Shown here: in pieces, positions 3,339-60,853 of the stretch
Position numbering within the stretch: the first letter of the stretch is position 1
How the letters are laid out: every line of letters begins with the position of its first letter
Origin: Candidatus Pacebacteria bacterium CG_4_10_14_0_8_um_filter_42_14
GTDB taxonomy: Bacteria; Patescibacteriota; Microgenomatia; UBA1400; PJMF01
Reading direction: 5' to 3'
DNA length: 63,443 bases
NCBI GenBank assembly: GCA_002784625.1
Contig: PFLP01000005.1
Location: forward strand, 1 to 63,443
Notes under the pieces: generated by a model
The model's input: the letters and a program-made list of their open reading frames with translations, nothing else
Database searches by the model: none
Told to the model about the DNA's origin: nothing
Translations under genes and position numbers: made by a program

Positions 3339-3373
3339 TTAATTAAATCGTGGTAGAATAAACGTCTTAACTT

Positions 3374-3447
3374 GGGTCGCTAGCTCAGTTGGTTAGAGCG
3401 CAGTCCTGATAAGACTGAGGTCCATGGTTCGAATCCATGGCGACCCA
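3374..3447 (+). tRNA. tRNA-Ile (anticodon GAT)
   Basis: Cloverleaf by hand: acceptor gggtcgc/gcgaccc, D arm gctc-agttggtta-gagc, anticodon arm cagtc-ctGATaa-gactg, T arm catgg-ttcgaat-ccatg. CCA is not encoded. Confidence 0.95.
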
Positions 3448-3460
3448 CCCCATTTCATAC

Positions 3461-16872: not shown

Positions 16873-16880
16873 AAATGTAG

Positions 16881-23056: not shown

Positions 23057-23887
23057 TTAAAGGGGCTTGATTTCAAACTCTGAGCCACCCTCTGGATAAT
23101 CAAATCTAACGGCCGCAGTTTTTTCACTCATGTGGTGCACACGAAGGAATAACTCGACAAAAGGATTGTCATAGCCACTTGAGCCAGCATTAACAGCCAG
23201 AACACCTCGATCAACAGTGAAACCACCAGTGGAAATTACCCCCAGCATACTGACGCCATTGAGAATTACTTGGACGTTATCTCCAGGTTTCAGCTTCATC
23301 TTGTTCAAATCATCCTTACGCATGGTGGTTTTAATATTGCCAAAACCATCTGTCCAAGCAATTAAGTTGGATGGAATTTCAGGAATATCTGCAACATTTA
23401 GCTCTTTACCTAATGAAGACTTGTCCCCATTGACTAACTCCGCCACTTTTTCTGGGAAAAAATCTCTTGAACGAAACTGAGAACCGCTGTTAGGACAATT
23501 AATATCTCGAAACTCAACAATGTCTTTTTTGACAAAGCCAAAGGCAAACTCTGACCTGACATTAACAATCTCAACACCATTCTTTAGGCGAGCATACTTA
23601 ATTCCGTGATCTATATTGCTTTTCATCGCTTTACTACTGTCGCGACGGGGAGCGGCATTTCCATAGATAAACATTTTGCCCTTGTTTTGGGCATATGCAT
23701 ACTGGGCTGTCACAAAACCAATGGCCATGGTGTCTAATGAAGGAACTTCAGTTGGGTGAATGCGAACAGAGTGAGGAGCACGTAAATGGAATTGGAGTCG
23801 ATTGGTAATTTCTCCAAATTCCATGCCCCCAGCAACGTAATCGCAGATAACATGTAGCAGCGTTGTCGACTTATTTTCTCCACTCAT
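23057..23887 (-). CDS. DUF62-family SAM hydroxide adenosyltransferase (SAM hydrolase/halogenase-like)
   Basis: Family-like motifs SQFRSRDFF, TDGFGNIKT, and C-terminal GVLAVNAGSSGY..FVEL. AAAGGAG SD upstream. Confidence 0.6.
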   Translation of the reverse strand: MSGENKSTTLLHVICDYVAGGMEFGEITNRLQFHLRAPHSVRIHPTEVPSLDTMAIGFVTAQYAYAQNKGKMFIYGNAAPRRDSSKAMKSNIDHGIKYARLKNGVEIVNVRSEFAFGFVKKDIVEFRDINCPNSGSQFRSRDFFPEKVAELVNGDKSSLGKELNVADIPEIPSNLIAWTDGFGNIKTTMRKDDLNKMKLKPGDNVQVILNGVSMLGVISTGGFTVDRGVLAVNAGSSGYDNPFVELFLRVHHMSEKTAAVRFDYPEGGSEFEIKPL

Positions 23888-28095: not shown

Positions 28096-30072
28096 ATGAA
28101 CATTCTTATCCCAAACTCCTGGCTTCTTGAACATTTAGAGACTGATGCAACCCCAAAGCAGCTCCAAGATTTCTTGTCGCTCTCGGGCCCATCCGTAGAA
28201 AGAATTAATGAGCATAACGGCGAACCAGTCTTTGATATTGAAGTCACGACAAATAGAGTTGACTCAATGTCTATCCGCGGCATTGCTAGGGAAGCAGCGG
28301 CTATTTTGCCACAATTTGGTATTCCCGCAGAGCTCAAACCGTTGAACTTACCCGATGTTTCAAAGACAAATAACCCCTTGCCCCTGCCAAAGATTCTAGA
28401 AAATGATTACCTTAATCACAGAACCATCTGCGTAATTTTAAGCTCAGTAAATCGAGCAGAAACTCCAAAGTGGATGGCAGATCGCTTAGAACAAATCGAG
28501 ATGAATGTCCACGATGCTGTCATCGACATCACCAACTACATTACCCATGAGCTTGGCTATCCCTGCCATGCCTTTGACTACGACAAGTTAGTCGCTACCG
28601 GCAATGAAATTCGCATTGTTGAGGCTGAAGCAGGTGAAACTTTCACCACCCTCGACGGTGAGTCTTTCACAACAGTTGGTGGAGAGGTAGTCTTCAAAAA
28701 CGGCGAAGGCACAATCATTGATTTGCCATCTATTAAGGGAACGAAAAATACTTCTATCGATGAAAGTACTAAAAACGTGCTTCTCTTAATGGAGTCGATC
28801 GATGCCAACAAAGTCCGCTTTGCTAGCATGACGCATGCCATTAGAACTACAGCGGCCCAACTCATGGAGAAAAACGTCGATCCAAATCTCGCCTCCGACG
28901 TAATGAAAATGGGAGTAAAACTCTACCAAGAACTTTGCCAGGCAAAAGTAGCCAGCGAGGTCTATGACCATTTTCCAAATCAAGCCGCATCGTCAACAAT
29001 AGACATTACCTCGAAAAAACTTGCCGAGTATCTTGGTTTCGAACTACCGCTAAATGACTCAGTAAAAATGCTTGAAAAGCTTGAGTGTCAAACCAGCATT
29101 GCGGGCGATATCCTAACTGTAACTCCTCCAAGCTTCAGACCAGACTTAGTTATCCCAGCGGACATTATCGAGGAGGTTGCCAGACTTTATGGCTATCACA
29201 ACATACCCAGTATCCTAATGCCAACGGCGATTCCTCTCAATCGCCCAGCAGAAACCAACTTTGGTCTTGAGCATCAAGCCAAAGAATTCTTGAGCGCAAT
29301 TGGCTGGCAAGAGGTTTATACCTACTCGATGGTCAGTGAATCTGAAGCACTGGAAAGTGGTTTTAACATAGAAGATCATCTGAAAATTTCAAACCCCCTG
29401 ACAGAAGATAAGGTCTATTTGCGTCGTTCTCTAATACCGTCCCTGGAAGCCGTAATTTCACACAACGCTGATAGGGGTTCTGTTTCTGTATTTGAACTAG
29501 CCAATACATATCAACCTCAGGACCAATCTCTGCCAGAAGAGATGCTCACTCTGGCCATGATCTCAACCAGAGATTATCGAACCGTACGTGGAGATCTTGA
29601 GTCTCTGCTTACTAAGCTCCATATTTATCATTGTGTGATTACGCCATTAGACACGAATGATCAAATTGGCATAATCCAAGTTGGCGACTCGGCTGAGGAA
29701 ATTGGCCAAATTGCGGTTGGTAATAAACACGTACATGTCCAACTAAAAATGGCAGCATTGGTAAAATTAAGCTCATCTCATCCAACCTACAAGGCGCTAC
29801 TGAAGACAGCAGCCTTAATCGAGGACCTGACCTTCACCCTGCAAGAGAAAACAAAGGTAGGTTCTCTGCTTGCGGCCTTGAGTCAAGCTGATCCCATGAT
29901 CGAGTCGGTCAATTTAAAAACAATCTATAACCGTAATTTCACTTTCACCATAATCTATCGTCATCCAGATCAACCAATCTCGTCAGAGATGGTCGCCCCC
30001 GTAAGAAAACAACTTGTCACCCTAGTAGAGAGTGACTGGCAGGGACATCTTGTCGGAGAACTCTCGAACTAA
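28096..30072 (+). CDS. pheT: phenylalanine-tRNA ligase beta subunit (short form without the OB/EMAP tRNA-binding domain)
   Basis: B1-like N-terminus joined directly to FDIEVTTNRVDSMS, then B3/4 and B5 regions and a FDX-ACB-like C-terminus. 658 aa. Confidence 0.9.
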   Translation: MNILIPNSWLLEHLETDATPKQLQDFLSLSGPSVERINEHNGEPVFDIEVTTNRVDSMSIRGIAREAAAILPQFGIPAELKPLNLPDVSKTNNPLPLPKILENDYLNHRTICVILSSVNRAETPKWMADRLEQIEMNVHDAVIDITNYITHELGYPCHAFDYDKLVATGNEIRIVEAEAGETFTTLDGESFTTVGGEVVFKNGEGTIIDLPSIKGTKNTSIDESTKNVLLLMESIDANKVRFASMTHAIRTTAAQLMEKNVDPNLASDVMKMGVKLYQELCQAKVASEVYDHFPNQAASSTIDITSKKLAEYLGFELPLNDSVKMLEKLECQTSIAGDILTVTPPSFRPDLVIPADIIEEVARLYGYHNIPSILMPTAIPLNRPAETNFGLEHQAKEFLSAIGWQEVYTYSMVSESEALESGFNIEDHLKISNPLTEDKVYLRRSLIPSLEAVISHNADRGSVSVFELANTYQPQDQSLPEEMLTLAMISTRDYRTVRGDLESLLTKLHIYHCVITPLDTNDQIGIIQVGDSAEEIGQIAVGNKHVHVQLKMAALVKLSSSHPTYKALLKTAALIEDLTFTLQEKTKVGSLLAALSQADPMIESVNLKTIYNRNFTFTIIYRHPDQPISSEMVAPVRKQLVTLVESDWQGHLVGELSN

Positions 30073-31288
30073 TCAGCTTTCTTTCAAACTAGCTTCAGTT
30101 TTACTGGGACTGCTGATTTTCTTAATCCCAAGCAACCTTTTTTATGTTTTGGAGCATCAACTTGGCTACTTTGGGGGGCTACGGATTGATTATCTGATTC
30201 CTAAGCTCTATGCAAGTGAACTAATTGGAGTACTACTAATTTGTGTTGCTCTAATTTCACGAATGGCAAGCTTTCGACTTCACTGGAAGCCAGTAGTTTT
30301 TGTTCTAGCTTTAGCCATTTTTCAAGTATTTTCTCCAGTCCCAGCTAGTAGCCTTTGGTTTTTGCTAGAGCTCCTGATTACAGTAGCAGTTACAGCCATA
30401 ATTTTGCAATTGCCAAAGATTGTTACTCACGACAAATTGGTAACTTACAGCTTAATTGGTACCATAATTTTCCAATCTTCATTAGCAATTTATCAATTCA
30501 TTTATCAGCAATCTCTTGGTGGCTATTGGCTGCTAGGTCAGGGCAATCTACTCAAGTATGCTGGTATTGCCAACCAAACTCTCTTTGGAGTTCAGTACAT
30601 TCTGCCGAGCGGAACAACTCCTCACCCCAATATCCTGGCAGGGGTTCTAGTTGGATTAATGACTTTAGTTTGGTTGCGAAAAAAGCAAGTTGGCAAGCTC
30701 GTCTTGATAGCGACTCTTTTCATGGGAATAATTGCTGTCATCCTGACTTTTTCGATCTCAGCTTGGCTAAGCGCTGGACTCGTTTGCCTTGCGCTTATTG
30801 GTAAAAACCGCTGGCAACAAGTTACGAAAATACTAATTATCAAAACTCTCTGGGTACTTTTTCTCTTGGCACCAACAGTTCTTGTTCTCACTCAAATCGT
30901 TTCAACTTCCCCAAGTATTGTGCGAAGAATTGCCCTAAACAAAGAGGCCACAAATATGATTATCCAACACCCCTTAGCTGGAGTGGGCTTAAATGGCTTC
31001 GTGCCAGCCTTAGTTTCTTCAACTCATGAATCATCTCTTTTGCAGTTCGCTCAGCCAGCCCATCACGTTGGTTGGTTACTGCTTTCGGAAATTGGGTTAC
31101 TTGGAGTACTAGGCCTTTTATTAATTTTGCCAAAAAAAATAAAATCCATAAACGCTGACTCGCTGCTTCTTTTTTCAGCTCTCCTCATACCTCTGCTTAG
31201 CCTAGACCATTATCTCTACACCTTGCCTCAGGGAAGACTTTTGCTAGGAGTTTGTTTTGCGATTCTCTTAAGTCGGAAGCGGACTTGA
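30032..31288 (+). CDS. O-antigen ligase / Wzy_C-family polytopic membrane protein
   Basis: About 11 TM helices and the family-typical periplasmic loop (HPLAGVGLNGF...H). The start codon is uncertain; there is a 41-nt overlap with pheT. Confidence 0.6.
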   Translation: MTGRDILSENSRTNQLSFKLASVLLGLLIFLIPSNLFYVLEHQLGYFGGLRIDYLIPKLYASELIGVLLICVALISRMASFRLHWKPVVFVLALAIFQVFSPVPASSLWFLLELLITVAVTAIILQLPKIVTHDKLVTYSLIGTIIFQSSLAIYQFIYQQSLGGYWLLGQGNLLKYAGIANQTLFGVQYILPSGTTPHPNILAGVLVGLMTLVWLRKKQVGKLVLIATLFMGIIAVILTFSISAWLSAGLVCLALIGKNRWQQVTKILIIKTLWVLFLLAPTVLVLTQIVSTSPSIVRRIALNKEATNMIIQHPLAGVGLNGFVPALVSSTHESSLLQFAQPAHHVGWLLLSEIGLLGVLGLLLILPKKIKSINADSLLLFSALLIPLLSLDHYLYTLPQGRLLLGVCFAILLSRKRT

Positions 31289-33958
31289 GGTTGGAGTTGG
31301 AATTAAAGTAGGACTCGGCGAAGGACTTGCAGAAGGGCTCGGTGAAGGACTCGGTGTCGGAGTTGGATCTGGAGTTTTCCAATCAACACCTCCAGTGCCA
31401 ATTTTTTTCTTATCGGATTCTTTTGTTTTGCCAGACCTGGTGTAAGCTTTTGCCCAAATTTCATATCGCCCTGAACTAAGTTTTATTTTCCCTGTATAGC
31501 TACGGTCATTTATCGTTTCTCGCACCGAGCCATTTACTAAGAGCTCTATCTTTTCGATGCCATCACCAGAATCTGACTGAATTTCAACCTCGATGTTTTC
31601 GTCAGAGTAAGTTTTCTCGTTCTCCGGCTTTTTCAGATCAATATATATTTCACTTTGATCACCACAGTACTCGGTCGGGACTTTGTAACGACCATCTTCT
31701 TGAGCGGCAATCCAAGAATTAATACCTTCCTGCCAGCGATTAATTCCATCTAAAGAGAGTGGATCACTTTCTTTCAAAACAATAAACTCCTTTTCCTCAT
31801 AATCTCCAGACGCCATCCTGGCCTCTGGAGCCAGCTTATTCTCACCTTTGCAGAGTTTTAGTTTTGTATGAATTAGATCGGGGAGTGCGGGCAAAGTATT
31901 GGCCAAAGCATATTCACTCTTACTGGCGTAACCATCATGTTCTGGATATCCAGAAATACTATCAACCATAACTTTCTCAACTGACTCGGGAATTTCCCAA
32001 GCTGGATCGGAGTAGCCAGAATCGAGAGCAGCCAAGACAATGCGCCTCCAAATTGGCGTTGCTCCAGAAACACCAGATGCCACTGTCTTCATCTGACTGT
32101 TATCATTATTTCCAACCCAAGCACCTACAATAATTTCTCTGGACCAACCAATCGCCCAGTTATCGCGCTGGTCATTAGTGGTTCCTGTTTTGACAGCAAT
32201 GTTGGGACTAATATTAAGTAAAGAACGCGTACCGAAAGCAATAGCGCGGGCGGCATTATCTGACAAAATATGATTAATCAGGAACGCCTCCGCTTCTGAA
32301 AAAAGTCGTCGCCCCTCCACCGGCTTGTGCTCAAAGATTGTCTTACCATTTTTATCTTCAATCTTAAGAATAGCCACTGGCTCCGTCTTAATTCCTCCTG
32401 TTGCGAACGAACTATAGGCGGTGACTGTGTCGATTAGATGAACCTCAGCGCCTCCGAGGGTGACGGCCAAACCAAATCTTTGTTTGTTTTCTGCAGTCGG
32501 CTGAAGAGTTACAAATCCCATGTCATAGGCTTGCTGTAAAAATGAATCAATACCAACTAGCGCTAGAGCTTTAACAGCCGGAATATTTAGAGAACTAGCC
32601 AAGCTATCACGCACGGAAACTGGACCATGAAATTTGCCATCATAATTACCGGGTTCGTAAGCATCGGCTCCCTCGTTACTGACAAATTTTGTTGGAGTAT
32701 CATCCAAAACTGAGGCCGGCGTATAGCCTCGTTGTAAAAGGGTTAGATACGTCACTGGCTTAATCGAAGATCCGGGTTGACGAAGACCATCAACAACCAC
32801 ATTAAACTGGCCATCGATGTCTTCGCTGGCAAAATCCTTGCTACCAACCATACTAAGAATCTCACCTGATCGTGGGTCCATAACTAGGACCGCGCCATTG
32901 GTAATGTTGAGACCTTCAACTTGCGAAACTTCATCCAGAACAATCTCTTCGGCTTGCTCCTGAAGCTTCAGGTCCAAACTGGTTGTGACCTTAAAACCCG
33001 AGTTAGTCACCACCTCTTCACCGTATAGATCATCCAGCAGATTTCTGACATAAAACACAAAGTGAGGGGCCTTGATCAAAAGCTGTTTTTTAGAGAACTC
33101 AACCGTGTCGAGATCTGAGAGGGCTTGATCGTAAGCAAGCTCGGTAATGTGATTATCCTCTCGCATTCTTCTAAGTACGCCTTTGGCGCGAACCTTCCAG
33201 AGAGGCTCACCGTCATCATCAACTTGACCGCTAAATGGTGAGTATGCAGAGGGTCGCTGCGGCAGTCCCGCAAGAATTGCTGACTGGACCAAATTTAGCT
33301 CACTCACTGGTTTGTCAAAATAAACCTCAGCTGCCGTACCAACCCCCCAGGCTGTACCACCATAAGGGGCTTCATTTAAATACATCTCCAGAATTTGATC
33401 TTTAGAAAAAGTTCTCTCTAATTGTAGTGACAAAACCAGCTCTTTAAATTTACGAGTGATTGTTCTTTCGTTGGTAAGCAAGACATTCTTTACCAATTGC
33501 TGCGTTAGAGTTGAGCCACCGATTAGCCTCTGTCTCGCCACAAAATTATAGGGAATGCGCAAGATCGTCATCGCGTCGAAACCGCCGTGCTTATAAAAGT
33601 CTTTGTCTTCTACTGCGATGGTGGCATTTTTTAGATCTTCTGGAAGTTCCGCGAGGGTGGCTGGCGTTCGCCTTTCTTGATCATATAGATCAAACAACAA
33701 CTCGCCATTGCGATCTAAAATTTTGGTACTAAAACCTGATCGCCTGACCACTTCTCCTGGAGCGGGTAAGTCTTTAGAGAACCAAGCAAATAGACCAAAA
33801 AAGAGAAGAATCGCTAAAACAACGCCGATGGCTCCACCTATGGCCAAAAAACGAATGATTTTAAACTTTAATAAATTGCGCTTATTTTGAGTGACGAGTC
33901 CCATGCTTCTTCGAGAGCGAGCCACAGATTTTTGACGCCTTCGTAGTTTTCTAAGCAT
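31268..33958 (-). CDS. class A penicillin-binding protein (PBP1A: transglycosylase + transpeptidase) with a C-terminal Ig-like/PT-rich extension
   Basis: GT51 motifs EDKDFYKHGGFD and GGSTLTQQL. TP motifs SSIKP, SLN and KTGTT. The ORF-track frame extends to GTG 34060, but I prefer ATG 33958 (MLRKLRRRQK, then a TM helix). Confidence 0.9.
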   Translation of the reverse strand: MLRKLRRRQKSVARSRRSMGLVTQNKRNLLKFKIIRFLAIGGAIGVVLAILLFFGLFAWFSKDLPAPGEVVRRSGFSTKILDRNGELLFDLYDQERRTPATLAELPEDLKNATIAVEDKDFYKHGGFDAMTILRIPYNFVARQRLIGGSTLTQQLVKNVLLTNERTITRKFKELVLSLQLERTFSKDQILEMYLNEAPYGGTAWGVGTAAEVYFDKPVSELNLVQSAILAGLPQRPSAYSPFSGQVDDDGEPLWKVRAKGVLRRMREDNHITELAYDQALSDLDTVEFSKKQLLIKAPHFVFYVRNLLDDLYGEEVVTNSGFKVTTSLDLKLQEQAEEIVLDEVSQVEGLNITNGAVLVMDPRSGEILSMVGSKDFASEDIDGQFNVVVDGLRQPGSSIKPVTYLTLLQRGYTPASVLDDTPTKFVSNEGADAYEPGNYDGKFHGPVSVRDSLASSLNIPAVKALALVGIDSFLQQAYDMGFVTLQPTAENKQRFGLAVTLGGAEVHLIDTVTAYSSFATGGIKTEPVAILKIEDKNGKTIFEHKPVEGRRLFSEAEAFLINHILSDNAARAIAFGTRSLLNISPNIAVKTGTTNDQRDNWAIGWSREIIVGAWVGNNDNSQMKTVASGVSGATPIWRRIVLAALDSGYSDPAWEIPESVEKVMVDSISGYPEHDGYASKSEYALANTLPALPDLIHTKLKLCKGENKLAPEARMASGDYEEKEFIVLKESDPLSLDGINRWQEGINSWIAAQEDGRYKVPTEYCGDQSEIYIDLKKPENEKTYSDENIEVEIQSDSGDGIEKIELLVNGSVRETINDRSYTGKIKLSSGRYEIWAKAYTRSGKTKESDKKKIGTGGVDWKTPDPTPTPSPSPSPSASPSPSPTLIPTPTSSPLPT

Positions 33959-34113
33959 GACGTACCAATAGTACCGCAGCTTGTTGTTGAAAACCAGAAG
34001 CCAGAAGCCAAGACGAGATAAAAATGACACACACCTATTGTAACAAGTTACTGGCACCACTGCAGGACTGTCGTTGCTTTTTATAAAATATGTAAGATAT
34101 AGTACTACGAGAT

Positions 34114-35985
34114 ATGTCCAAAGGCGTTTTATTACTTCTGTCTCTAATCTCGTTGCTAGCTTTTACTACCAACTCCGCCTCAGCTCAAGAAAACTATCCC
34201 GCAGCAATACAATCGATTGCAAACGAACCCATTACTATCAAAACCTATATTGTAGCAAAGGCAGGCATTAACTCTGCTGACAATTCAAATTGGCCAAAAT
34301 ACGCCTTATACATCAATAACGGCACAAATTACGACGGCCCTCGTGATTATGGCAGCTGCGAAACAGCGGGCAACGGTTGTGGCACCCCCAATCTCTATAG
34401 TGACAAAATTCAAGCTGGAAACTGTGGATCATATTTTTGTCCAAGTACAGCGGCTCAGGTCATCGAAACTCAAGTGACTGTTGGCAAATTAATTATTCAA
34501 CCAAACACAGGAGAAAGTGACTTTTTGGTTAGTAAACTATCTTACGTATTTTTCAACGACTACTGGAACCCAAATACGTCACCTGTCACTGATCGAGATT
34601 TTGGTATCACAAAAATTGAGTTCTTTGGCCCAAATGGTAAATTGCTAGAAACACTTACTCCGGCATCGCCAACTCATGGTGTGGAGACGAGTTCAACCCC
34701 AGATCTAAACGGTATCTACTTTGACCTTGGTCTAGTCAATGCCGAGGGAGTTTCAAACACAGAACAGAATGGAATGGTAGCCGCCTTTGATAAAAAAGAA
34801 GTCGAGACAATTATTCAAAACCAATCAAGAGAAAAAGGCATGTGGCAACTCACCAAAGAAGGTTCTATCAACATAATCTCAGTCTCGGTTGCAAAGAAAA
34901 TTATCGCGGGACTCTCTGTAAGTTCAACACCCACTCCAACACCTTCACCTTCACCAACACTTACACCTTCACCTACTCCTTCTCCGGTTGTTAAGGCAGC
35001 TGCGGATGGAACACTCCCATGGAGCACAAATGCTGGACAACAGCGACTTGGTCCAACCACAGCATGGACTGACCCCACCACGCATGTAGGCTCGATATGT
35101 AACGGTATTTGGTGTTGGCAGTACAATTTTTCAACTAATAAATTAGAAAATAATGGCAATCCAGTCAACCTAAATTCAGGATCAGGTAGCGTTAGATCTC
35201 CTGATTGGGGTGGATTCTGGGCTGACGGCGGCCCCGCAGCCGCTTGGGAAGAATATAAAAATTCATTTATTTCAATAAGTAACAACAAGTACATGTGGCT
35301 TTGGACCAAAACTGGCTTAGTGAACTACCAACCATTCGACCTAAGTGTGCAAGAGTACTGGAGAGACACTGTCGCAGCCTCTGACGGCACAACTCTTTTC
35401 TCTGGCAAAAGCATCACTACCAGCTGGACTGACAAACTCAATAGCCGAGAATATTTCTGCAATGGAAAATGGTGCTGGGTATTTAATTACGAAGAAATGC
35501 GTTGGCACAATCAAGACGATGCGAGCAAGGGCAGACCTTTTGACATTGCTTCACTTTTTAAAATTGTTCCCTCGAGTACGAGTATCTCAATCACTTCAAA
35601 TGCAGGACCAACTGTGGGCTGGACAAATGATGTTTCAAATATCAGCACCGTCTGTAACGAAGGGATTTGTTGGAGCTACAAAAATAAAGCCGGGAGCAGG
35701 CCCGACCTACTAGATATCGTATGGGAAAGAACAAATAATCAGGGACTTGGAGAGCCTATTTCGGCCTGCGAAGCTGTCGGTGAATCTGCAAGTGTCTGCG
35801 GAAGTGGAGGAATACAGCCATTGCCAGGAGACCTCGACAAGAATAATCGTGTTGATATTTTTGATTACAACTTACTACTGGATAAATATGGAACAGATTT
35901 TTGCGACTTTAACTTGGCGGGAACATGCGTCATTGGCAACGATGACATCGGGGCATTCAAAGCAGTTTTTGGCACACATAGATAA
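34114..35985 (+). CDS. secreted protein A: unknown N-domain, PT linker, three Cys/Trp repeat modules, C-terminal dockerin-like module
   Basis: Signal peptide ...TNSASA/QE. Linker STPTPTPSPSPTLTPSPTPSP. Motifs CNGIWCWQYN, CNGKWCWVFN and CNEGICWSYKN. C-terminus GDLDKNNRVDIFDYNLLLDKYG. Confidence 0.7.
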   Translation: MSKGVLLLLSLISLLAFTTNSASAQENYPAAIQSIANEPITIKTYIVAKAGINSADNSNWPKYALYINNGTNYDGPRDYGSCETAGNGCGTPNLYSDKIQAGNCGSYFCPSTAAQVIETQVTVGKLIIQPNTGESDFLVSKLSYVFFNDYWNPNTSPVTDRDFGITKIEFFGPNGKLLETLTPASPTHGVETSSTPDLNGIYFDLGLVNAEGVSNTEQNGMVAAFDKKEVETIIQNQSREKGMWQLTKEGSINIISVSVAKKIIAGLSVSSTPTPTPSPSPTLTPSPTPSPVVKAAADGTLPWSTNAGQQRLGPTTAWTDPTTHVGSICNGIWCWQYNFSTNKLENNGNPVNLNSGSGSVRSPDWGGFWADGGPAAAWEEYKNSFISISNNKYMWLWTKTGLVNYQPFDLSVQEYWRDTVAASDGTTLFSGKSITTSWTDKLNSREYFCNGKWCWVFNYEEMRWHNQDDASKGRPFDIASLFKIVPSSTSISITSNAGPTVGWTNDVSNISTVCNEGICWSYKNKAGSRPDLLDIVWERTNNQGLGEPISACEAVGESASVCGSGGIQPLPGDLDKNNRVDIFDYNLLLDKYGTDFCDFNLAGTCVIGNDDIGAFKAVFGTHR

Positions 35986-35992
35986 AGTAGAT

Positions 35993-37189
35993 ATGACAAA
36001 ACAAAATAGGATATTTAAAGAAATTAGAAGGAGAAAAGCTTTTTCACTAATACTCATTTTTATCCTCGCAACTGGCTTGATCGCGACAGTCATGCTTTTG
36101 AAGAACGCGCAAGATTTGCGACAAAATGCTTCGGGAGAATCGGTGCAGCTAAAGCTTTCAACAAACTCAATCGATGTCTCCTCCCCTCACGCGTTTAAGC
36201 CAAACGAAACAGTAAGTGTTCTTGTCGAAGTTGTTCCAGGAGAAGCGCGTGTCTCTGCAGCTGACTTTATCCTCACATATGACTCCAGTTCTTATGATTA
36301 CGTCGCTACTGAGTTGTTTGAGAGTACATTTGGTGTACTTCTTCAGAAAGAAATAAACCCTACTGATGGAAAAGTTCATCTGGCTCTCGGTAGAAAACCA
36401 CCATCTGCCCAATATGGCAATCAAAAAATGGTGAGAGTTACCTTCCGTGCCAAGAATAAAGTTGGTACCACCCAAATTGGAATCGAGGCTCAGACTGCCA
36501 AGATCGCAGCGCTTGGAAGTGCCATTAATGTATACCAAGGTCCCACTTCGCCAATCGACATGAAGATAGTGGGAGGCGACTCGGGACCAAAAACCTCAAT
36601 ACAATTAAAATTCAAATTAGCGGGCATCCCTGTCGAAAACAATCCTAGCTTTTTGCCAGAGTCTGCCCGAATCCAGCCAGTAAAAATCTCACTACAAAAC
36701 ATGGAGACAGGCGCAGCTACCATACCGACCTCGCTCTCAAGCATCTTCATAAAAGAACAAACAACACCCTCTCTAATCAGCTATTTTTCTTTCATAAATC
36801 CGTTTACAGTGACCGATCTTTCCACGGGAAAATACAACATTTTACTCAAGGGACCGAAACATCAGCAAATACGCTTCTGCAAGAATGATCAAGACGCAGA
36901 CTATCGCTGTCAAATCACCGACAGCATCGAGATTACCAAAGATGCCTCTCACACTTTTGACTTTACAAAACGACCACTTTCTTGTGGCGATCTGCCAATA
37001 TCTGGCACCAATCATGACCAGCAGGATGGGGCCGTGAGGGTTACAGACTACTCATTCATGGTTAGTTGCCTCAGCAAACGAACTGACGCAGCTTGTGTCA
37101 CTCGTGCGGACTGCAATGAGGATGGTTCTGTTACAAATCTAGACATGGACCTCTTGCTCGAAACACTTAGCACCGCGTATGATCAATAA
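35993..37189 (+). CDS. membrane-anchored protein B: cohesin-like module, beta-rich middle domain, dockerin-like C-terminus
   Basis: ATG 35993 with N-terminal anchor FSLILIFILATGLIATVMLL. AADFILTYDSSSYDYV...MVRVTFRAKNKVGTT. C-terminus DGAVRVTDYSFMVSCL and NEDGSVTNLDMDLLLETL. The ORF-track start at 35747 overlaps gene A and is rejected. Confidence 0.65.
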   Translation: MTKQNRIFKEIRRRKAFSLILIFILATGLIATVMLLKNAQDLRQNASGESVQLKLSTNSIDVSSPHAFKPNETVSVLVEVVPGEARVSAADFILTYDSSSYDYVATELFESTFGVLLQKEINPTDGKVHLALGRKPPSAQYGNQKMVRVTFRAKNKVGTTQIGIEAQTAKIAALGSAINVYQGPTSPIDMKIVGGDSGPKTSIQLKFKLAGIPVENNPSFLPESARIQPVKISLQNMETGAATIPTSLSSIFIKEQTTPSLISYFSFINPFTVTDLSTGKYNILLKGPKHQQIRFCKNDQDADYRCQITDSIEITKDASHTFDFTKRPLSCGDLPISGTNHDQQDGAVRVTDYSFMVSCLSKRTDAACVTRADCNEDGSVTNLDMDLLLETLSTAYDQ

Positions 37190-37871
37190 CATTAGACCAG
37201 AAATGCCTATGCCTACGCCAGAACTTATACTAGGAAATCCAACACCAACTCCACCGCTGAACCCAATCAGGAAACATATTCAGATTGGCATTTCAATTGT
37301 TATTTTTTTGAGTGTTGTTTCTCTTCTCTATAGCAGAAACAAATCTCAGCAGATCATTCCCGATCAAGTTCATGAAAACACAGAGCAGACAAGTGCCGTT
37401 AGCGAGTTGCCTGCTATAAATAAAAAGCAGAGTACTCCAAGCATAGTGCTTGCCATAAAAAGTACACTACAAGCAGAGGAATTAAATACTTTTCAAGTTG
37501 GCAAAAAAAGCACAGCCTATATCACTATCAAATCAACCGACTTAGAACAATTTGCCGATGGAGCAGAGTTAAGTCTTCGTTTCGACCCAAGTGTTCTTGC
37601 AGGCGTTTCTGTGCTTCCAAACAAGCTTTTCAGCACTGTTATTCGTAACACTGTCTCTCAAGACTTGGGCAACATAGACATAGCGTTGATTCGCCAGCCA
37701 GATGAAGAAGTTGTTATCAGTGACGAAGTCGTGCTTGCAACCCTGTCTTTCACGCCAATGTTAAAAGGATCAACTTTCCTGAGTTTTGAGAATGACAAAA
37801 CCATCGTTGCAGGAAACCAGGGAGATAATATTCTCGAAAGTACTACGAGCCTGACAATAGAGAGCGAATAG
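37179..37871 (+). CDS. membrane-anchored protein C with a cohesin-like module
   Basis: TM IGISIVIFLSVVSLLY, then AELSLRFDPSVLAGVSV...VVLATLSFTPMLKGSTFLSF. Confidence 0.6.
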   Translation: MINNIRPEMPMPTPELILGNPTPTPPLNPIRKHIQIGISIVIFLSVVSLLYSRNKSQQIIPDQVHENTEQTSAVSELPAINKKQSTPSIVLAIKSTLQAEELNTFQVGKKSTAYITIKSTDLEQFADGAELSLRFDPSVLAGVSVLPNKLFSTVIRNTVSQDLGNIDIALIRQPDEEVVISDEVVLATLSFTPMLKGSTFLSFENDKTIVAGNQGDNILESTTSLTIESE

Positions 37872-37879
37872 ATAGGCAC

Positions 37880-38707
37880 ATGCCCAAACAAATTTTATTA
37901 TTTCTCCAACGACTTCTTCTTTTTACCGGGATATTTTTATTTGCTGGCCAGCTTAGTTATTCTAAAGCCCAGGCGGCAGCTCATTTCGAACTCAGTCCTA
38001 CCACTGGAGTAATTCAAACTGCAGGAACAAGCGTTGCGGTCATCGTCAACGCAGACGCAAATCAACTCAAATCTGCTAGCGCAGTCATTACCTACGATGC
38101 TGCAAAAGTCACAGTTACTAGTGTAAACGGCACCTACTTCCCAACCGTAACTACAGACACCACAAAGTCGGGAGAGATCGTCATCTCCGGAACACTCCCT
38201 ATTGGAAACACTGTAGGCGTAACGGGCACCGGCACACTTGCAACTCTCACGCTCAAACCAGTTTCTGGAGCCACTGGCTCAGTATCGCTGGGGTTTCGCT
38301 GTTCTGAGTCAAGTTCTGATGATTCAAATCTAATCACTATGACAAGTACTAATTTGTTGGCAGCCACATCCCAATGTAGCGCCAACAGCACTGGCAGCTA
38401 TACCCTGGTAACAAGCAGCAGCACAACAACAACGACAACTTCTCAATGCAACCAAGATTGCTCCGCTAGCGCTGTGTGTGCATCTGGACTCACTTGTGTA
38501 ACCGGAAAGTGTCGCAATGCCTCTTGTCACACATCTACAACATGCAGCTGCACTGGAGCCGATATTGCCGCAGCTCAGGGGACTAGCACTTTGCCTAAAA
38601 CGGCCTCAATTAACCAGACAACCTTGCTTATTGGTACCGGAATAATCTACCTGATCAGTGGCGGCTTCCTCGTGACTCAGGCAAAAAAATACTTTCGCAG
38701 CCATTGA
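37880..38707 (+). CDS. wall-anchored protein D: signal peptide, cohesin-like module, Thr-rich linker, Cys-rich knot, LPKTA sorting signal
   Basis: ASAVITYDAAKVTVTSV...GTLATLTLKPVSGATG. SSSTTTTTTS. Eleven Cys in about 50 aa. LPKTA (38591-38605) followed by a hydrophobic helix and KKYFRSH. Confidence 0.7.
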   Translation: MPKQILLFLQRLLLFTGIFLFAGQLSYSKAQAAAHFELSPTTGVIQTAGTSVAVIVNADANQLKSASAVITYDAAKVTVTSVNGTYFPTVTTDTTKSGEIVISGTLPIGNTVGVTGTGTLATLTLKPVSGATGSVSLGFRCSESSSDDSNLITMTSTNLLAATSQCSANSTGSYTLVTSSSTTTTTTSQCNQDCSASAVCASGLTCVTGKCRNASCHTSTTCSCTGADIAAAQGTSTLPKTASINQTTLLIGTGIIYLISGGFLVTQAKKYFRSH

Positions 38708-38721
38708 GGTACAATAGTTCA

Positions 38722-39912
38722 ATGACCGAACAACTACCGGAGCTACTAACCAGAGGTGTTGAGCAAGTGCTTCCAGACTCATTCTCATTGAATAAGCTGA
38801 TGTCAGAGAAAAAAATCAGACTCTACTTAGGCATTGATCCAACGGGCTCACTACTTACCCTTGGTCACTCGGTAGTTCTCAGAAAACTCCAACAATTTGC
38901 AGACGCTGGCCATCAGGTCATTTTGCTCATTGGCAACGGGACAGTCCGCATTGGCGATCCAACAGGTCGTGATAGCACCAGGCCAGTTCTGACTGACCAA
39001 GTAATTGAAGAAAACTTTAAAACTTGGAAATCTCAAGCCAGCAAAATTCTTGATTTTGACAAAATCGAAATTCGCTACAACGGAGATTGGCTCGATAAGC
39101 TTACGTACGCAGATATGATTAAGCTTCTTGCCAAAACTACTGTCCAGCAGCTAACAGAGCGAGACATGTTTCAGGAGCGGATCAAGAATGAACAACCAAT
39201 TTTTGGTCATGAAATTTTATACCCACTTCTTCAAGGATATGACAGCGTGGCCATGGATGTTGACCTTGAGATTGGTGGCTCCGATCAGCTCTTTAACATG
39301 ATGATGGGCAGACAGTTGCAGAACAGCTACAACAACCATGATAAATGGGTTTTAACTTCTCCAATTATCAACGGCACTGATGGCAGAAAAATGAGCAAGT
39401 CGTACAACAACTTTGTGGCACTGACAGAAGAACCAAACCAGATGTATGGCAAGCTCATGAGCATTGCAGATGAGCAAATTATTGAGTACTTTACGCTTCT
39501 CACCAACACACCAGTGACGGATATTGAAGCTATGAGTCAAGCCATGGCTTCGGGCGAAAACCCAATGCAGTTTAAGCATCTTCTAGCCAAAGAAATCACC
39601 AAGTTCTATCACGACGATGAGGCAGCCAGACTTGCGGAGGAACATTTCCGAGTTACAGTTCAGGAGGGTTCCATCCCTGCCGAAATTCCCAGTGTAAATT
39701 TCGAAGAAGCAGAGCTTAGTTTGCTAGATCTCCTTCACCGCTTGGAACCAAATGAAAGCCGTAGCAATCTTCGTCGCCTGGTCGAGCAGGGTGGGGTAAC
39801 CATCTATCCAGAAGAAACGAAACCATCTGAGCCTACGCAGCTAATTTCACTCAAAGTTACAGAGGTAATTAAAGTTGGCAAACGCAAGTTCTACAGGATA
39901 ACTCATGACTAG
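38722..39912 (+). CDS. tyrS: tyrosine-tRNA ligase
   Basis: The HIGH-region equivalent is LTLGH; KMSKS is present (RKMSKSYNN). C-terminal S4-like domain. I prefer ATG 38722 over TTG 38704. Confidence 0.93.
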   Translation: MTEQLPELLTRGVEQVLPDSFSLNKLMSEKKIRLYLGIDPTGSLLTLGHSVVLRKLQQFADAGHQVILLIGNGTVRIGDPTGRDSTRPVLTDQVIEENFKTWKSQASKILDFDKIEIRYNGDWLDKLTYADMIKLLAKTTVQQLTERDMFQERIKNEQPIFGHEILYPLLQGYDSVAMDVDLEIGGSDQLFNMMMGRQLQNSYNNHDKWVLTSPIINGTDGRKMSKSYNNFVALTEEPNQMYGKLMSIADEQIIEYFTLLTNTPVTDIEAMSQAMASGENPMQFKHLLAKEITKFYHDDEAARLAEEHFRVTVQEGSIPAEIPSVNFEEAELSLLDLLHRLEPNESRSNLRRLVEQGGVTIYPEETKPSEPTQLISLKVTEVIKVGKRKFYRITHD

Positions 39913-44047: not shown

Positions 44048-44326
44048 ATGAAAAATCTGCTTGAATTCATCCTCATCCATTTAGTTGAACATCCAGAGGA
44101 TGTTACCATTGAAGAGCGAGAAAATGGCGATACTACTGAATTCATCATCCACGTTCACGCTGAAGACATGGGTCGCGTCATTGGCAAAGGTGGCTCAGTT
44201 ATCCATGCAATTCGAAACATAAGTCGCATCAGGGCAGTAAAAGAAGGCATTCGTGCCCGAGTTATTGTCGAAGATCAAGAACCAGCTCAAGTTCAGAGTT
44301 CTGAAACCGTCTCTGACGAAACCTGA
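44048..44326 (+). CDS. KH-domain RNA-binding protein (YlqC/UPF0109 type)
   Basis: GRVIGKGGSVIHAIRNI GXXG motif, in the conserved position after rpsP. Confidence 0.75.
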   Translation: MKNLLEFILIHLVEHPEDVTIEERENGDTTEFIIHVHAEDMGRVIGKGGSVIHAIRNISRIRAVKEGIRARVIVEDQEPAQVQSSETVSDET

Positions 44327-45111
44327 GCTCCAGGAAATCTCAATTTAGCAACTCGGAAGATATCTTCCGACCCACCACCAAGAATAGTGTTTTGCTCTGG
44401 TAAATCAATCTTCTCGAAAGAGGCTAGCTCGTTTAGAACAATTTGATCTGTTGTAGTGAGCTTTGGCAAAGGCTGCTCAAGAGAAACAGAAATTGGCTGA
44501 GTGAAAAAGAAAGTGGTCGTCACTAGGCTTGCTGATGAGGCTTTCGACTGATCAACGGTCGCTGATTCATTATCAAACGTGGCATTCAATGACAATTCTG
44601 AGATAGTGGTAAAGGGGGTAACTGTCTCTGTCAGCAACATGAATTGTTGTAGCTGATCATAAGTACCACCAACCGAGAGTTTTAACTCCAATGAGTCATA
44701 AGCACCCTTACCAGTATTCACATACTCCGCCGATGAAGTTGAGACAAGACCTGGAGAAATTTCAAAGTTACTAACTACAACTCCAGACTTCTGCGTGACG
44801 GCATAAAGACTAGTTATAAGCTCTAAAAGCGGTTTATGAGAGGGAAGAGTAGCGGAAACGAAATCAATTTGTTCATACTCTGGCTGATAAGTTATGTTTG
44901 AGAGCTCGCTAAATTTTTGCTTAAGCTTTGTCAGCCTTTCATTCTCTTTGGCAATGGTGGTATTTACTTCCAAGGAGGCTTTAATTTGGGGGATACAAAC
45001 AGCTACCAATAAAATCACACTTGCCAAAACCAAACCAATGGCAATAGCCAGAGAGCGCCTGGTGTGAAGAAACAACTGTAGATTAAATGGTTGCTTGGCT
45101 TTTTTGTTCAC
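44293..45111 (-). CDS. pilO: PilO-like type IV pilus assembly protein (extended C-terminus)
   Basis: Single N-terminal TM helix followed by a coiled coil (ENERLTKLKQKFSEL). Positioned after pilM-pilN with a start/stop overlap. Confidence 0.5.
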   Translation of the reverse strand: MNKKAKQPFNLQLFLHTRRSLAIAIGLVLASVILLVAVCIPQIKASLEVNTTIAKENERLTKLKQKFSELSNITYQPEYEQIDFVSATLPSHKPLLELITSLYAVTQKSGVVVSNFEISPGLVSTSSAEYVNTGKGAYDSLELKLSVGGTYDQLQQFMLLTETVTPFTTISELSLNATFDNESATVDQSKASSASLVTTTFFFTQPISVSLEQPLPKLTTTDQIVLNELASFEKIDLPEQNTILGGGSEDIFRVAKLRFPGAQVSSETVSEL

Positions 45112-45680
45112 TAAGATTCCTTCTCAAGTACAATGTCTGGCAAGACGACGGTAAGTTTTAGACTATAAACTCCAGAGTCATTTCTACTCAATCCACCTCT
45201 GGTTATGTCTGGGTATGCCGCTAATAACTCAGGACTTTTTAATTGTTTAAAGACTCTTTCCATTGTAAAAATATCTTGAGCACTCAATGAAAAAGTTAGA
45301 ATCTCATTATTTTCTCCTGAGTACGAAAGTTGACTAATTATTACTCCAGGACCAAAAAACTTGCTAAAGAATGTCAACGCTTCCTGCTTATTTTTTCGGT
45401 TACCAAAAAGATCAGTTAAAACCCTAAGCTTGTGTGCAAAAATAGTATACGACTCTTCAATCGGTTGTTCGGCTAAAATTGCGGACTTGGTTGACTTTTG
45501 TTCTGACAAAATAGAGTCGAGATTTCTACTCAGCAACCAATGAGAAACACCAGCAACAATTCCTATAACTGCAATTATTCCTAAAGCAATGCTGCTAAAA
45601 AGCAATATCTTCTGATCCTGGGCCTGTGCTTTTTCAACCCACCTCTGCCGATCTCGAACAAAGTTAATGTTTTTCGGCAT
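45111..45680 (-). CDS. pilN: PilN-like type IV pilus assembly protein
   Basis: Short cytoplasmic N-terminus (NINFV), one TM helix and a periplasmic-type domain. It lies immediately downstream of pilM. Confidence 0.55.
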   Translation of the reverse strand: MPKNINFVRDRQRWVEKAQAQDQKILLFSSIALGIIAVIGIVAGVSHWLLSRNLDSILSEQKSTKSAILAEQPIEESYTIFAHKLRVLTDLFGNRKNKQEALTFFSKFFGPGVIISQLSYSGENNEILTFSLSAQDIFTMERVFKQLKSPELLAAYPDITRGGLSRNDSGVYSLKLTVVLPDIVLEKES

Positions 45681-45685
45681 GAACT

Positions 45686-46693
45686 TTACGACTCCTGTGC
45701 TAATAGTCCCATACAGACAGCCATGCTTGGTTGATTAATTTTCTCTGGTACGTCTCCTGAAGCAGAAGCAAAAGGGGCGGCAATTAGCACCTCACTTCCG
45801 AATTCCGTAGCGACCTGACCAACTAATTCTGGCAGCATCGCCGAACCACCCGAAAGAACTACTCTATCGACCGAGTTCTGTGGATGCTGACTCACAAAAA
45901 ATTGTACTGCTTTTTTAGCCTCAGTAAGCAGAACTTGAACCGCAGGAAGAAGTGCCGCGGCGACTTTACCTTCGAACTGTCTTTGATCAAGACCATAGGT
46001 TCGCTTATATTGTTCAGCCTGGGCTCCATCTAAGCCCACCTTCTGTTCCAGTGTTTTGGTCAAGAGCTGGCCTCCGTTCAAGTGAGTTAAAACAAATTGA
46101 AGTTCTCCCTGATGCATGATCGCCATATTCATAGTTGAAGCACCAATATGAAGGATCAAAGTCGTTGGATCATTGGAAACAAATCTAAGTGATCGCAAAA
46201 TCGAGAGCATTTGCGTTTCAACCAATTCTGGCTCAATTCCCACTTGGTTAAAAACTGAAACATACTGCTCTATAACCTTTTTGCGAACTCCAACAAGGAG
46301 CACCCTCATCAAACCATCTTCTTTTTTTCCGGGCCTATATAAAACCTGGTACTCAAGAGAAAGTTCCTCGGGAGGAATAGGAATATGTTGTTCTGCTTGC
46401 CAGCCAATGGCCGATGCCAGCTCAGCATCTGAAAGCCGGGGAATGGCGATAACTTTGGTGGAAACAACGGTCTCCGGAAGTGAAAGGCGCACTGGCTCAT
46501 TAACAAAGCCATAATCAGTCATTAAAGCCTGAATAATTCCCGCAAGCTTCGTGCTTGCCGCATCATCAGTAGGCACAGAGATGCCTGTAGAGTTAAAGAC
46601 TTCAGCAACGCGCTTAATATGCACCGCACTGCCAGTAGAACCAGCAATGGCTTTAATACTATATGTACCGATATCGATGGCCAGGGCAGGCAT
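45686..46693 (-). CDS. pilM: type IV pilus assembly ATPase-fold protein PilM
   Basis: Actin/HSP70-like fold motifs (LAIDIGTYSIKA, HIGASTMN, LSGGSAMLPEL). Confidence 0.85.
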   Translation of the reverse strand: MPALAIDIGTYSIKAIAGSTGSAVHIKRVAEVFNSTGISVPTDDAASTKLAGIIQALMTDYGFVNEPVRLSLPETVVSTKVIAIPRLSDAELASAIGWQAEQHIPIPPEELSLEYQVLYRPGKKEDGLMRVLLVGVRKKVIEQYVSVFNQVGIEPELVETQMLSILRSLRFVSNDPTTLILHIGASTMNMAIMHQGELQFVLTHLNGGQLLTKTLEQKVGLDGAQAEQYKRTYGLDQRQFEGKVAAALLPAVQVLLTEAKKAVQFFVSQHPQNSVDRVVLSGGSAMLPELVGQVATEFGSEVLIAAPFASASGDVPEKINQPSMAVCMGLLAQES

Positions 46694-46707
46694 TATAAAA
46701 TCTCCTC

Positions 46708-47502
46708 TTAGTTCGCTTTCACAATACTACCTCCACTATACAGGGCGTAATCAAAAATAGCAGGGGCTGCGGGAATGGATCTAGTGCCTTGGATGACACT
46801 AGTCACACCATCGGTATCACCAGTTGCCATTGCCTGAGCAGTGTGCTGTTGAATGCCGGCACCAGAGACACTCAGGTCTGTGTTTTTTAGCAAAACCTTA
46901 ATTCTCATTAGCTTATCCCCACTGAGAACACCAAATTCATAAAAGTTCTTGTAATCGGTGACAATTCTCTGATTTGCCTTAATAAAACCAGAAGGACCAT
47001 CTGAGGAAGTTGCGCACGACTCAGGCTTAATTCCAGAATATCTAACGCTGTAATTTCCTGAGCCGTCATCCGAGTATATTGCGACAAGTAAAGAGGCTAC
47101 ACTATTGCAGTCAGTGTTAGTTTTTTCCCAATCTATAGTGATAGTTCCCGGAGTACTAGACGATAAATCAATAGTTGCCGTAGAGCCTTGGGGAAAATAT
47201 GAAGTAAGATCTCCAGAGGTGACCTCAGAACCAATAATGGTCTCATTAACGCCATTTGATGACAATGTCAATGGATCTGGGGCTCCCGCAACATACGAAG
47301 CAGGATCCGCCAAAAGCGTATCAAGCGCAGCCTCCGCCGCATTAAAAACTCGAACCTGTTCTGACTCATTTCCAGCCAGACTAATTTCTTGAGTAGCCTG
47401 ATTTGCCAAAGAAAGACCGAGGCTTAGGAGTACAACCATCACCAGCAAAGTAATAACCGCTACGTATCCTGATTGTGATGATTTTTTAGAAGGAAAAAAC
47501 AT
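46708..47502 (-). CDS. PilX-N-domain minor pilin-like protein
   Basis: Basic N-terminus, then the hydrophobic helix SGYVAVITLLVMVVLLSLGLSLA, then the PilX_N-like FNAAEAALD. Confidence 0.6.
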   Translation of the reverse strand: MFFPSKKSSQSGYVAVITLLVMVVLLSLGLSLANQATQEISLAGNESEQVRVFNAAEAALDTLLADPASYVAGAPDPLTLSSNGVNETIIGSEVTSGDLTSYFPQGSTATIDLSSSTPGTITIDWEKTNTDCNSVASLLVAIYSDDGSGNYSVRYSGIKPESCATSSDGPSGFIKANQRIVTDYKNFYEFGVLSGDKLMRIKVLLKNTDLSVSGAGIQQHTAQAMATGDTDGVTSVIQGTRSIPAAPAIFDYALYSGGSIVKAN

Positions 47503-49246: not shown

Positions 49247-49317
49247 TAATCAGAAGAACTCAGTCTGCCACCAATAACCCAAAGCCCGTAGGGGGAATTC
49301 CTCCTCTAGAATAATTG

Positions 49318-60846: not shown

Positions 60847-60853
60847 AACAAAA

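Follow-up and report, generated by a model that had tools for sequence, protein, structure and literature searches.

The whole stretch of DNA analysed in this study (the window) is a 63,443-bp contig that NCBI assigns to Candidatus Pacebacteria bacterium CG_4_10_14_0_8_um_filter, which belongs to the candidate phyla radiation (CPR). At positions 34114–38707 of its plus strand lie four genes, referred to here as A, B, C and D. This conserved operon probably encodes a minimal cell-surface cohesin-dockerin assembly that displays a binding head and serves an adhesion-type function, a reading that we hold with moderate confidence on the basis of sequence comparisons, predicted structures and the analogy with a known system. 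In the proposed assembly, D would be linked to peptidoglycan by a sortase, the dockerin of B would plug into the cohesin of D, and the dockerin of A would plug into the cohesin of B and possibly also into that of C, which would offer a membrane-proximal second site. The head displayed by the cell would sit on a stalk and bind a glycan or a ligand, and its likely function would be adhesion to a polysaccharide or glycan-coated surface, possibly that of a host cell.

Organization and conservation of the four-gene cassette

A gap of 7 nt separates A from B and one of 8 nt separates C from D, and B and C overlap by 11 nt. The common direction of the four genes and this spacing, reported previously in an initial annotation made from the sequence alone, were reproduced exactly from the open reading frames (ORFs) and the checked junction sequences. 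The locus tags of A and B are COY80_00515 and COY80_00520, respectively, and the start of B was taken as the ATG at M83 of a longer mechanical ORF. The upstream neighbor of the operon is a class A penicillin-binding protein (PBP) gene on the opposite strand and the downstream neighbors are the genes for TyrRS and RecG. A promoter and terminator scan of positions 33800–39100 gave the same counts as shuffled sequences and no internal plus-strand terminator, which is compatible with one transcription unit; it was otherwise uninformative. An NCBIfam scan returned nothing meaningful for A, B, C or D. The initial annotation had also supposed an episymbiotic bacterium of the small-genome type, and the NCBI record does name a CPR bacterium, here a groundwater organism with a tiny genome.

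The order A-B-C-D was invariant in eight distinct cassettes: those of the window, L001 (identical to L013), L003 (identical to L004), L005, L007, L008, L009 (identical to L006 and L014) and L012. These cassettes occupied two chromosomal contexts, either between PheRS-Wzy-PBP and TyrRS-RecG or between gyrB-PPase-gyrA and an integrase. Given eight conserved versions, a chance arrangement is excluded. With the patterns used, an ortholog of B was detectable in only 3 of 185,579 GTDB species representatives, all of them Pacebacteria-like or unclassified metagenome-assembled genomes. Thus, the cassette is clade-specific.

Protein A was non-catalytic in all eight core cassettes, of which the middle module of A differed by sub-clade. 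A hemopexin-like propeller was found in the window, L001, L007, L009 and L012, whereas L003, L005 and L008 contained a Cys-bearing module of ~130 amino acid residues, named 'KYILRIDQ' here, for which no Pfam match was found. Both the propeller and the 'KYILRIDQ' module were present in one protein of 764 residues (P0036). Moreover, a variant cassette was found in the gyrA/integrase slot of L011 (L011:8001-15912), where A is replaced by a glycoside hydrolase (GH) protein and followed by B-like, C-like and D-like genes. This protein (P0056; 1036 residues) possesses a GH clan-A core, an A-type N-terminal domain, a region of WRxxQ repeats and an A-type dockerin. The D-like protein of L011 (505 residues) contains extra immunoglobulin-like repeats, which are followed by the same 8-Cys module as in D and by LPQSG. 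Judging from these sequences, the cargo slot is exchangeable, with the propeller replaced by another module in some relatives and by a GH in one. A distantly related cassette was also observed in Candidatus Shapirobacteria GCA_037142555.1 (L010:5756-11421), which encodes a Cys-rich protein of 609 residues, a protein of 591 residues with two cohesin-like repeats and a dockerin-like end, a cohesin of 200 residues, a cohesin-LPKTG protein of 225 residues and an FN3 plus dockerin protein of 248 residues.

Cohesins of B, C and D

The cohesin of B matched Pfam Cohesin (PF00963) with 36.5 bits, well above the cutoff of 24.1. Its best PDB match by profile was the cohesin of Clostridium perfringens NagJ (2jh2; E-value of 1.2e-5). 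The score of C against the same Pfam family was 21.2 bits (E-value of 3.6e-4), just below the cutoff. However, comparison of the cohesin regions of the C and B ortholog sets by hhalign gave a probability of 95.8% with an E-value of 6.6e-9, and Cohesin matches are on record for the orthologs of C. The cohesins that had been proposed for B and C from motif reading were therefore borne out, that of C by its alignment to B and in spite of the Pfam score.

For D, the window copy had no Pfam match, its family profile returned only noise from the PDB sequences (PsaK and Dumpy), and hhalign probabilities of 1.3% for D to B and 7% for D to C were too weak to decide. As hhalign was indecisive, the identification of the D cohesin relies on structure prediction and on relatives of D with Pfam cohesins. 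The AlphaFold2 (AF2) model of D had nine to ten strands, with predicted local distance difference test (pLDDT) scores of 77–91 per 10-residue block over residues 31–140. The best 50 Foldseek matches listed for this model against PDB were all cohesins, the first being 6kgc_A (E-value of 8.6e-9, TM-score of 0.76). In addition, phmmer searches from D reached the Pfam Cohesin proteins P0029–P0032 with E-values from 8.9e-9 to 4.4e-5, the BLASTP comparison of D with P0029 gave 3e-17, and Pfam Cohesin was matched by 8 of 20 members of the D family (best 5.7e-11). D is thus predicted to carry the cohesin fold, as had been claimed before. The initial annotation had further suggested checking whether the modules of ~130 residues adopt the cohesin jelly roll. 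The nine-strand fold was assessed on the model of D, where it was found, and the cohesins of B and C were assessed by sequence profiles.

Predicted cell-wall anchor of D and N-terminal helices of B and C

The LPKTA motif, hydrophobic helix and basic KKYFRSH tail that had been described as a sorting signal are all present at the C-terminus of D. Among the orthologs of D, the motif takes the form LPx[TS][GA], including LPKTG and LPQTG, of which L238 and P239 are invariant; the window copy has Ala in place of Gly. Pfam Gram_pos_anchor (PF00746) was matched by 12 of 20 members of the D family (best 2.2e-5) and not by the window copy. NCBI names one of the members (P0025) 'LPXTG cell wall anchor domain-containing protein'. 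D also contains an 8-Cys module, CNQDCSASAVCASGLTCVTGKCRNASCHTSTTCSC, which is located after a Ser/Thr linker and before the sorting signal and is kept in the D orthologs and the D-like L011 protein. This module, for which 7 of 20 members had weak Pfam matches to Dumpy_DPY and the PDB match was 1oig with an E-value of 0.96, is probably a rigid stalk element.

The N-terminal helices previously noticed in B and C were also found, as a hydrophobic helix in B and as a transmembrane helix in C. The helix of B is followed by a motif, [QT]D-x-R-[QN]-[QNK]-A-[SAQ]-G (36110–36136), that occurs once in the window. In related CPR bacteria, the same motif follows the helix of other proteins that either bear a cohesin or are related and secreted (P0043, P0044, P0050, P0052, L011:13232-14749 and L010:7594-9369). 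A lineage-specific site for processing or sorting is one possible role of the motif. Whether B is cleaved at QDxRQxA[ST]G decides between a free and a membrane-tethered B.

Dockerins of A and B

The dockerin of B scored 25.8 bits against Pfam Dockerin_1 (PF00404), above the cutoff of 22.9, so both modules that had been claimed for B are supported by Pfam. The module between its cohesin and dockerin had neither a Pfam nor a PDB match; its place just ahead of the dockerin would suit an X-module-like spacer.

The dockerin claimed at the C-terminus of A is supported at the level of its family. A profile of seven orthologs had its best PDB match in a dockerin of Ruminococcus flavefaciens (5lxv_B; E-value of 0.026), and a profile of 20 C-termini of the wider family matched many PDB dockerins, the best of which was 2y3n_B with an E-value of 4.3e-8, with calmodulins being weaker. 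Moreover, three relatives that share the N-terminal domain of A (P0046, P0049 and P0057) had Dockerin_1 matches at or above the cutoff. The hhalign probability between the dockerins of A and B was 0.7% with the seven orthologs and 53% (E-value of 1.4e-4) with the wider family profile.

The dockerin of A has a canonical first Ca loop (D573-x-D-x-N-x-x-V-D-x-x-D584, with ligands D573, D575, N577, D581 and D584), and a conserved Cys pair (C597/C605) flanks its degenerate second loop. In the dockerin of B, the first loop is degenerate and the second is canonical (D373-x-N-x-D-G...D384, with ligands D373, N375, D377 and D384), and four Cys residues (C331, C359, C368 and C374) are invariant. The presence of Cys residues together with one canonical Ca loop in each suggests that these dockerins may be disulfide-stabilized and have a single binding mode.

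The proposed cargo protein A

The signal peptide attributed to A agrees with our reading of its sequence. The N-terminal domain that follows belongs to a rare family: an exhaustive HMMER search through 1.84 billion representatives yielded no more than 19 clusters. The window copy had neither a Pfam match nor a PDB sequence match, and the family profile did not match any PDB sequence even at E-values up to 10. When 18 members of the family were scanned singly, the sole recurrent Pfam family was CBM60 (PF16841), which was matched by nine of them with a best E-value of 1.4e-6. The top score was 27.3 bits as compared with a cutoff of 28.2, so no member was above the cutoff. CBM60 is a Ca-dependent xylan-binding module; its Pfam profile spans ~91 residues and the domain of A ~245. 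The architectures found in the family were N-terminal domain plus dockerin, CBM96 plus N-terminal domain plus dockerin, cohesin plus N-terminal domain, and GH fusions. For instance, in two proteins of ~1040 residues, a GH clan-A core precedes the N-terminal domain and an A-type dockerin; they are above the Glyco_hydro_cc cutoff and have kept the NEP and TE[YW]G motifs. Given the CBM60 matches within the family and its GH, CBM96 and dockerin fusion partners, the N-terminal domain of A is probably a divergent carbohydrate-binding module (CBM) with a distant, family-level resemblance to CBM60.

The Cys/Trp repeats of A are predicted to form a hemopexin-like four-blade propeller. The pLDDT of this region in the AF2 model was mostly 71–88 per 10-residue block, with three blocks at 52–61, and the top 28 Foldseek matches were all of the hemopexin fold, including C-terminal domains of matrix metalloproteinases (MMPs), vitronectin and legume albumins; for 1rtg, the E-value was 7.5e-9 and the TM-score was 0.70. 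These matches rule out a novel fold for the repeats. The match to Pfam Hemopexin (PF00045) was weak (15.2 bits as compared with a cutoff of 21.3; E-value of 0.021). In MMPs, vitronectin and legume albumins, this fold serves ligand or protein binding.

The earlier description of the cargo as a Cys/Trp-repeat protein thus stands for the repeats and not for the implied absence of a carbohydrate module, since the N-terminal domain belongs to a CBM60-like family. The initial annotation had also seen no GH or CBM nearby. As a description of the system, this claim does not hold, given the CBM60 matches and fusion partners of the N-terminal family and the GH protein in the A slot of L011. As stated earlier, on the other hand, there is no enzyme in the operon itself: no catalytic domain was found in A, B, C or D.

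Proposed pairing among the modules

The mean pairwise identities by module over seven ortholog sets were 0.84 for the B dockerin, 0.70 for the D cohesin, 0.50 for the A dockerin, 0.41 for the C cohesin and 0.33 for the B cohesin. In the variant cassette of L011, domain-specific profiles recovered the A dockerin (58.8 bits), the B cohesin (31.9 bits) and the knot/anchor part of D (74.5 bits), whereas the B dockerin (7.3 bits) and the D cohesin (5.2 bits) were barely detected. The two most constrained modules were therefore replaced together in L011, as expected of a cognate pair, which supports docking of the B dockerin on the D cohesin. Because of this joint swap, we infer that the B dockerin would dock on the cohesin of D and the A dockerin on that of B. 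Docking of A directly on D is not favored by the swap, which points to B as the intermediate. The hierarchy proposed earlier, with D as the base, B as the adaptor and A as the cargo, thus fits two indirect observations, namely the module conservation and this one joint replacement.

Arguments against the proposed assembly and alternative explanations

Several results weigh against the assembly proposed here. In the part of the genome covered by the window, neither a TLxTC motif nor a match to Pfam Sortase (PF04203) turned up in the 48 ORFs of at least 150 residues, and a motif search for sortase in ~150 kb of related loci found none. In favor of the assembly, on the other hand, a sortase is reported from a complete genome of the Microgenomates (PMC7143001). 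The window copy of the A dockerin had no Pfam Dockerin_1 match, the window copy of the A N-terminal domain did not match CBM60 at E-values up to 1, and the AF2 confidence was low in both of these regions. Both segments are present in the dockerins of A and B, of which, from our reading of the sequences, only one segment each retains its Ca ligands. In addition, the N-terminal helix of B may hold this protein in the membrane, which would complicate its role as an adaptor. The acceptor of A is also ambiguous: in a crude mirror-tree comparison, which covered seven taxa with a strong shared phylogenetic signal, the A dockerin paired best with the C cohesin (r of 0.81) as compared with the B cohesin (r of 0.66), so that the C cohesin may be an alternative acceptor of the A dockerin. 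Finally, the evidence for the wiring, comprising seven taxa and one module-swap event, is thin.

A cellulosome was ruled out by the single cohesin in each of B, C and D, which leaves no multi-cohesin scaffoldin, and by the lack of a dockerin-bearing GH in the operon or among the 48 window ORFs. A minimal polysaccharide-degrading version, in which dockerin-bearing GHs encoded elsewhere would dock on B, C and D and A would be the substrate-targeting CBM subunit, is unlikely but has several points in its favor. The N-terminal domain of A is fused in its family to GH clan-A cores with NEP and TE[YW]G, and in L011 the position of A is taken by an enzyme of this kind. Moreover, three cohesins as compared with two dockerins leave one socket of the operon free, and a higher number of GHs has been reported for Microgenomates than for the other lineages of the CPR (PMC7143001). 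However, the 48 window ORFs scanned yielded no further dockerin or GH, A is non-catalytic in every core cassette, and a single cohesin per protein would limit the assembly to a few enzymes at most.

Two further explanations appear improbable to a similar degree. A might bind a cell-wall glycopolymer of its own cell, with cohesin-dockerin contacts tying the membrane (B and C) to the wall (D) in an envelope-organizing complex, which would form a structural layer and not an adhesin. The N-terminal membrane helices of B and C, the wall link of D and the position of the cassette directly beside the class A PBP and Wzy_C-like genes in about half of the genomes would suit such a complex. The linkage to PBP is, however, not conserved, as the other half of the cassettes follow gyrA next to an integrase, and the swapping of the middle module of A between lineages is typical of outward-facing specificity modules and not of core envelope parts. 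Alternatively, there might be no pairing within the operon: the cohesins and dockerins might bind outside partners, such as other cells' proteins, in the manner of the non-cellulosomal toxin complexes of C. perfringens, or the degenerate dockerins might be no more than structural tails stabilized by Ca. The closest PDB relative of the B cohesin is indeed the non-cellulosomal cohesin of NagJ, each dockerin has one degenerate Ca loop, and the hhalign match between the dockerins of A and B is weak. On the other side, the four genes are strictly co-inherited in a fixed order, and the B dockerin and D cohesin are both very highly conserved and jointly replaced in L011. The cell-surface assembly with an A-B-D wiring remains the reading that we prefer.

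Table 1. Coordinates of genes A–D in the window and of the features assigned to their products
Feature	Position	Strand	Description and basis
Gene A	34114–35985	+	623 aa; putative secreted non-catalytic cargo: signal peptide, CBM60-like-family domain, Pro/Thr linker, hemopexin-like propeller, dockerin; ORF and orthologs in every cassette
A signal peptide	34114–34185	+	residues 1–24, ...SASA|QE; predicted by reading the sequence (short basic n-region, hydrophobic core, A-x-A site)
A N-terminal domain	34186–34920	+	residues 25–269; rare beta-rich family
A hemopexin-like four-blade beta-propeller	34996–35733	+	~residues 295–540; AF2 and Foldseek
A C-terminal dockerin	35818–35982	+	residues 569–623; family profile matches to PDB dockerins
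Gene B	35993–37189	+	398 aa; putative adaptor: N-terminal transmembrane helix, cohesin, middle module, dockerin
B N-terminal hydrophobic helix and QDLRQNASG motif	36038–36136	+	helix residues 16–36, motif residues 40–48; sequence and alignment invariants
B cohesin	36131–36562	+	~residues 47–190; Pfam match residues 61–168
B middle module	36575–36967	+	residues 195–325; 49% mean identity
B dockerin	36971–37186	+	residues 327–398; Pfam match residues 344–390
Gene C	37179–37871	+	230 aa; single cohesin with N-terminal membrane anchor (transmembrane residues 34–51)
C cohesin	37440–37868	+	~residues 88–230; Pfam match below the cutoff, hhalign to the B cohesin
Gene D	37880–38707	+	275 aa; putative wall-anchored base: signal peptide, cohesin, Ser/Thr linker, 8-Cys module, LPKTA sorting signal
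D cohesin	37979–38413	+	residues 34–178; AF2 and Foldseek, BLASTP, family Pfam matches
D 8-Cys module	38450–38551	+	residues 191–224; conserved Cys pattern
D sorting signal	38591–38704	+	LPKTA residues 238–242, hydrophobic helix ~247–266, basic tail KKYFRSH; regex match

Other genes of the window

Among the other genes of the window, a FemAB-family gene is at 11156–12199 and the class A PBP gene at 31268–34060 (minus strand) encodes a long Pro/Thr/Ser-rich C-terminal tail; the two are consistent with a cross-bridged peptidoglycan wall. The PBP gene is adjoined by a Wzy_C-like gene (30032–31288). A protein of the CAP/cysteine-rich secretory family is encoded at 15594–16160 and a protein with PEGA and SH3_3 domains at 5915–6811. 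A type IV pilus-like cluster on the minus strand (44293–47502) contains the genes for PilM (45686–46693) and a PilX_N-containing protein (46708–47502) as well as two unannotated genes downstream (45111–45680 and 44293–45111). Three ORFs had no Pfam family at the thresholds used: 6808–8526 (572 residues), 23057–23887 (minus strand; 276 residues) and 60746–61228 (160 residues).

The contig starts inside a 16S rRNA gene (model positions 903–1533), which is followed within positions 1–3450 by a ClpB-like AAA+ gene (759–3338) and a tRNA-Ile gene (3373–3450), with no 23S rRNA gene there. Given that the ClpB-like and tRNA-Ile genes come directly after the 16S rRNA gene without a 23S rRNA gene, the rRNA genes appear to be unlinked. 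RNase P RNA was found at 16878–17163 (minus strand; 115 bits, a 286-nt match to the model of 367 positions) and tmRNA at 49315–49728 (minus strand; 84.6 bits). The window contains seven tRNA genes.

Implications and comparison with known systems

The surface and host attachment of CPR bacteria (Patescibacteria) are largely unknown beyond type IV pili, and the operon described here, with its four soluble-domain proteins, is a small, conserved candidate that is tractable by experiment. One speculative extension, to which we assign a rather low probability, is that the cassette is a plug-in adhesin platform that attaches ultra-small CPR bacteria to glycans in the cell wall of their bacterial host, with D as a fixed socket, B as an adaptor and exchangeable heads, such as the propeller, the 'KYILRIDQ' module and the GH. 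If so, the heads would set the specificity for host or substrate and, in some lineages, digest the host surface, and cohesin-dockerin pairing would be a mechanism of episymbiotic host recognition. The analysis also defines a rare and probably carbohydrate-binding family, that of the N-terminal domain of A. Moreover, these dockerins, in which Cys pairs are conserved and one Ca loop is intact, could be of interest to protein engineers who use cohesin-dockerin connectors.

The use of cohesins and dockerins outside cellulose degradation has also been found in the GH toxin complexes of C. perfringens (NagJ cohesin; 2jh2, 2o4e and 2ozn) and in the cohesin of Archaeoglobus fulgidus (2xdh); 2ozn, 2jnk and 2xdh were also among our structure or profile matches. 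Those cases, however, are soluble enzymes joined to each other or orphan modules, whereas in the Pacebacteria cassette a wall anchor, an adaptor and a non-catalytic cargo are encoded together in one dedicated operon. Different from the hemopexin-like domains of MMPs, vitronectin and legume albumins, to which it has TM-scores of ~0.7 and identities of only 9–13%, the propeller of A is bacterial, is fused to a dockerin and has blades with Cys-x-x-x-W-C-W motifs.

The initial annotation had stated that no such system was known to be characterized. The sca cluster of R. flavefaciens (scaC-scaA-scaB-cttA-scaE) is, however, a characterized analog (PMC5301203, PMC12484212). Its ScaE is a single-cohesin protein that is covalently attached to the wall by way of LPXTG and sortase, the adaptor ScaC has one cohesin and one dockerin, and CttA is a non-enzymatic CBM protein whose dockerin binds ScaE and which mediates adhesion to the substrate (PMC5301203, PMC12484212). 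In both systems, the genes are clustered, and ScaE resembles D, ScaC resembles B and CttA resembles A. Different from the sca cluster, the Pacebacteria cassette encodes no multi-cohesin primary scaffoldin equivalent to ScaA or ScaB and no enzymes, and it has an additional membrane-anchored single cohesin (C). In place of the two CBMs of CttA, the head of A would consist of a CBM60-like-family domain and a hemopexin-like propeller. In the cassette, both dockerins combine invariant pairs of Cys with a degenerate Ca loop, and for an X-module there is a candidate by position. Furthermore, ScaC docks on ScaA and not on the anchor, and the host of the cassette is a small-genome CPR bacterium and not a fiber-degrading Firmicute.

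In the literature searched, no cohesin-dockerin system was described for CPR, Patescibacteria or Microgenomates, and the public records of such proteins carry only automatic names, for instance 'cohesin domain-containing protein'. Cohesin-dockerin surface display thus is apparently undescribed in the Candidatus Pacebacteria group, although its underlying principle is already known. The logic proposed for the cassette is the same as that of the ScaE-CttA substrate-adhesion arm of the R. flavefaciens cellulosome, and the cassette would extend operon-encoded cohesin-dockerin assemblies with sortase-type anchors from the Firmicutes to a CPR lineage.

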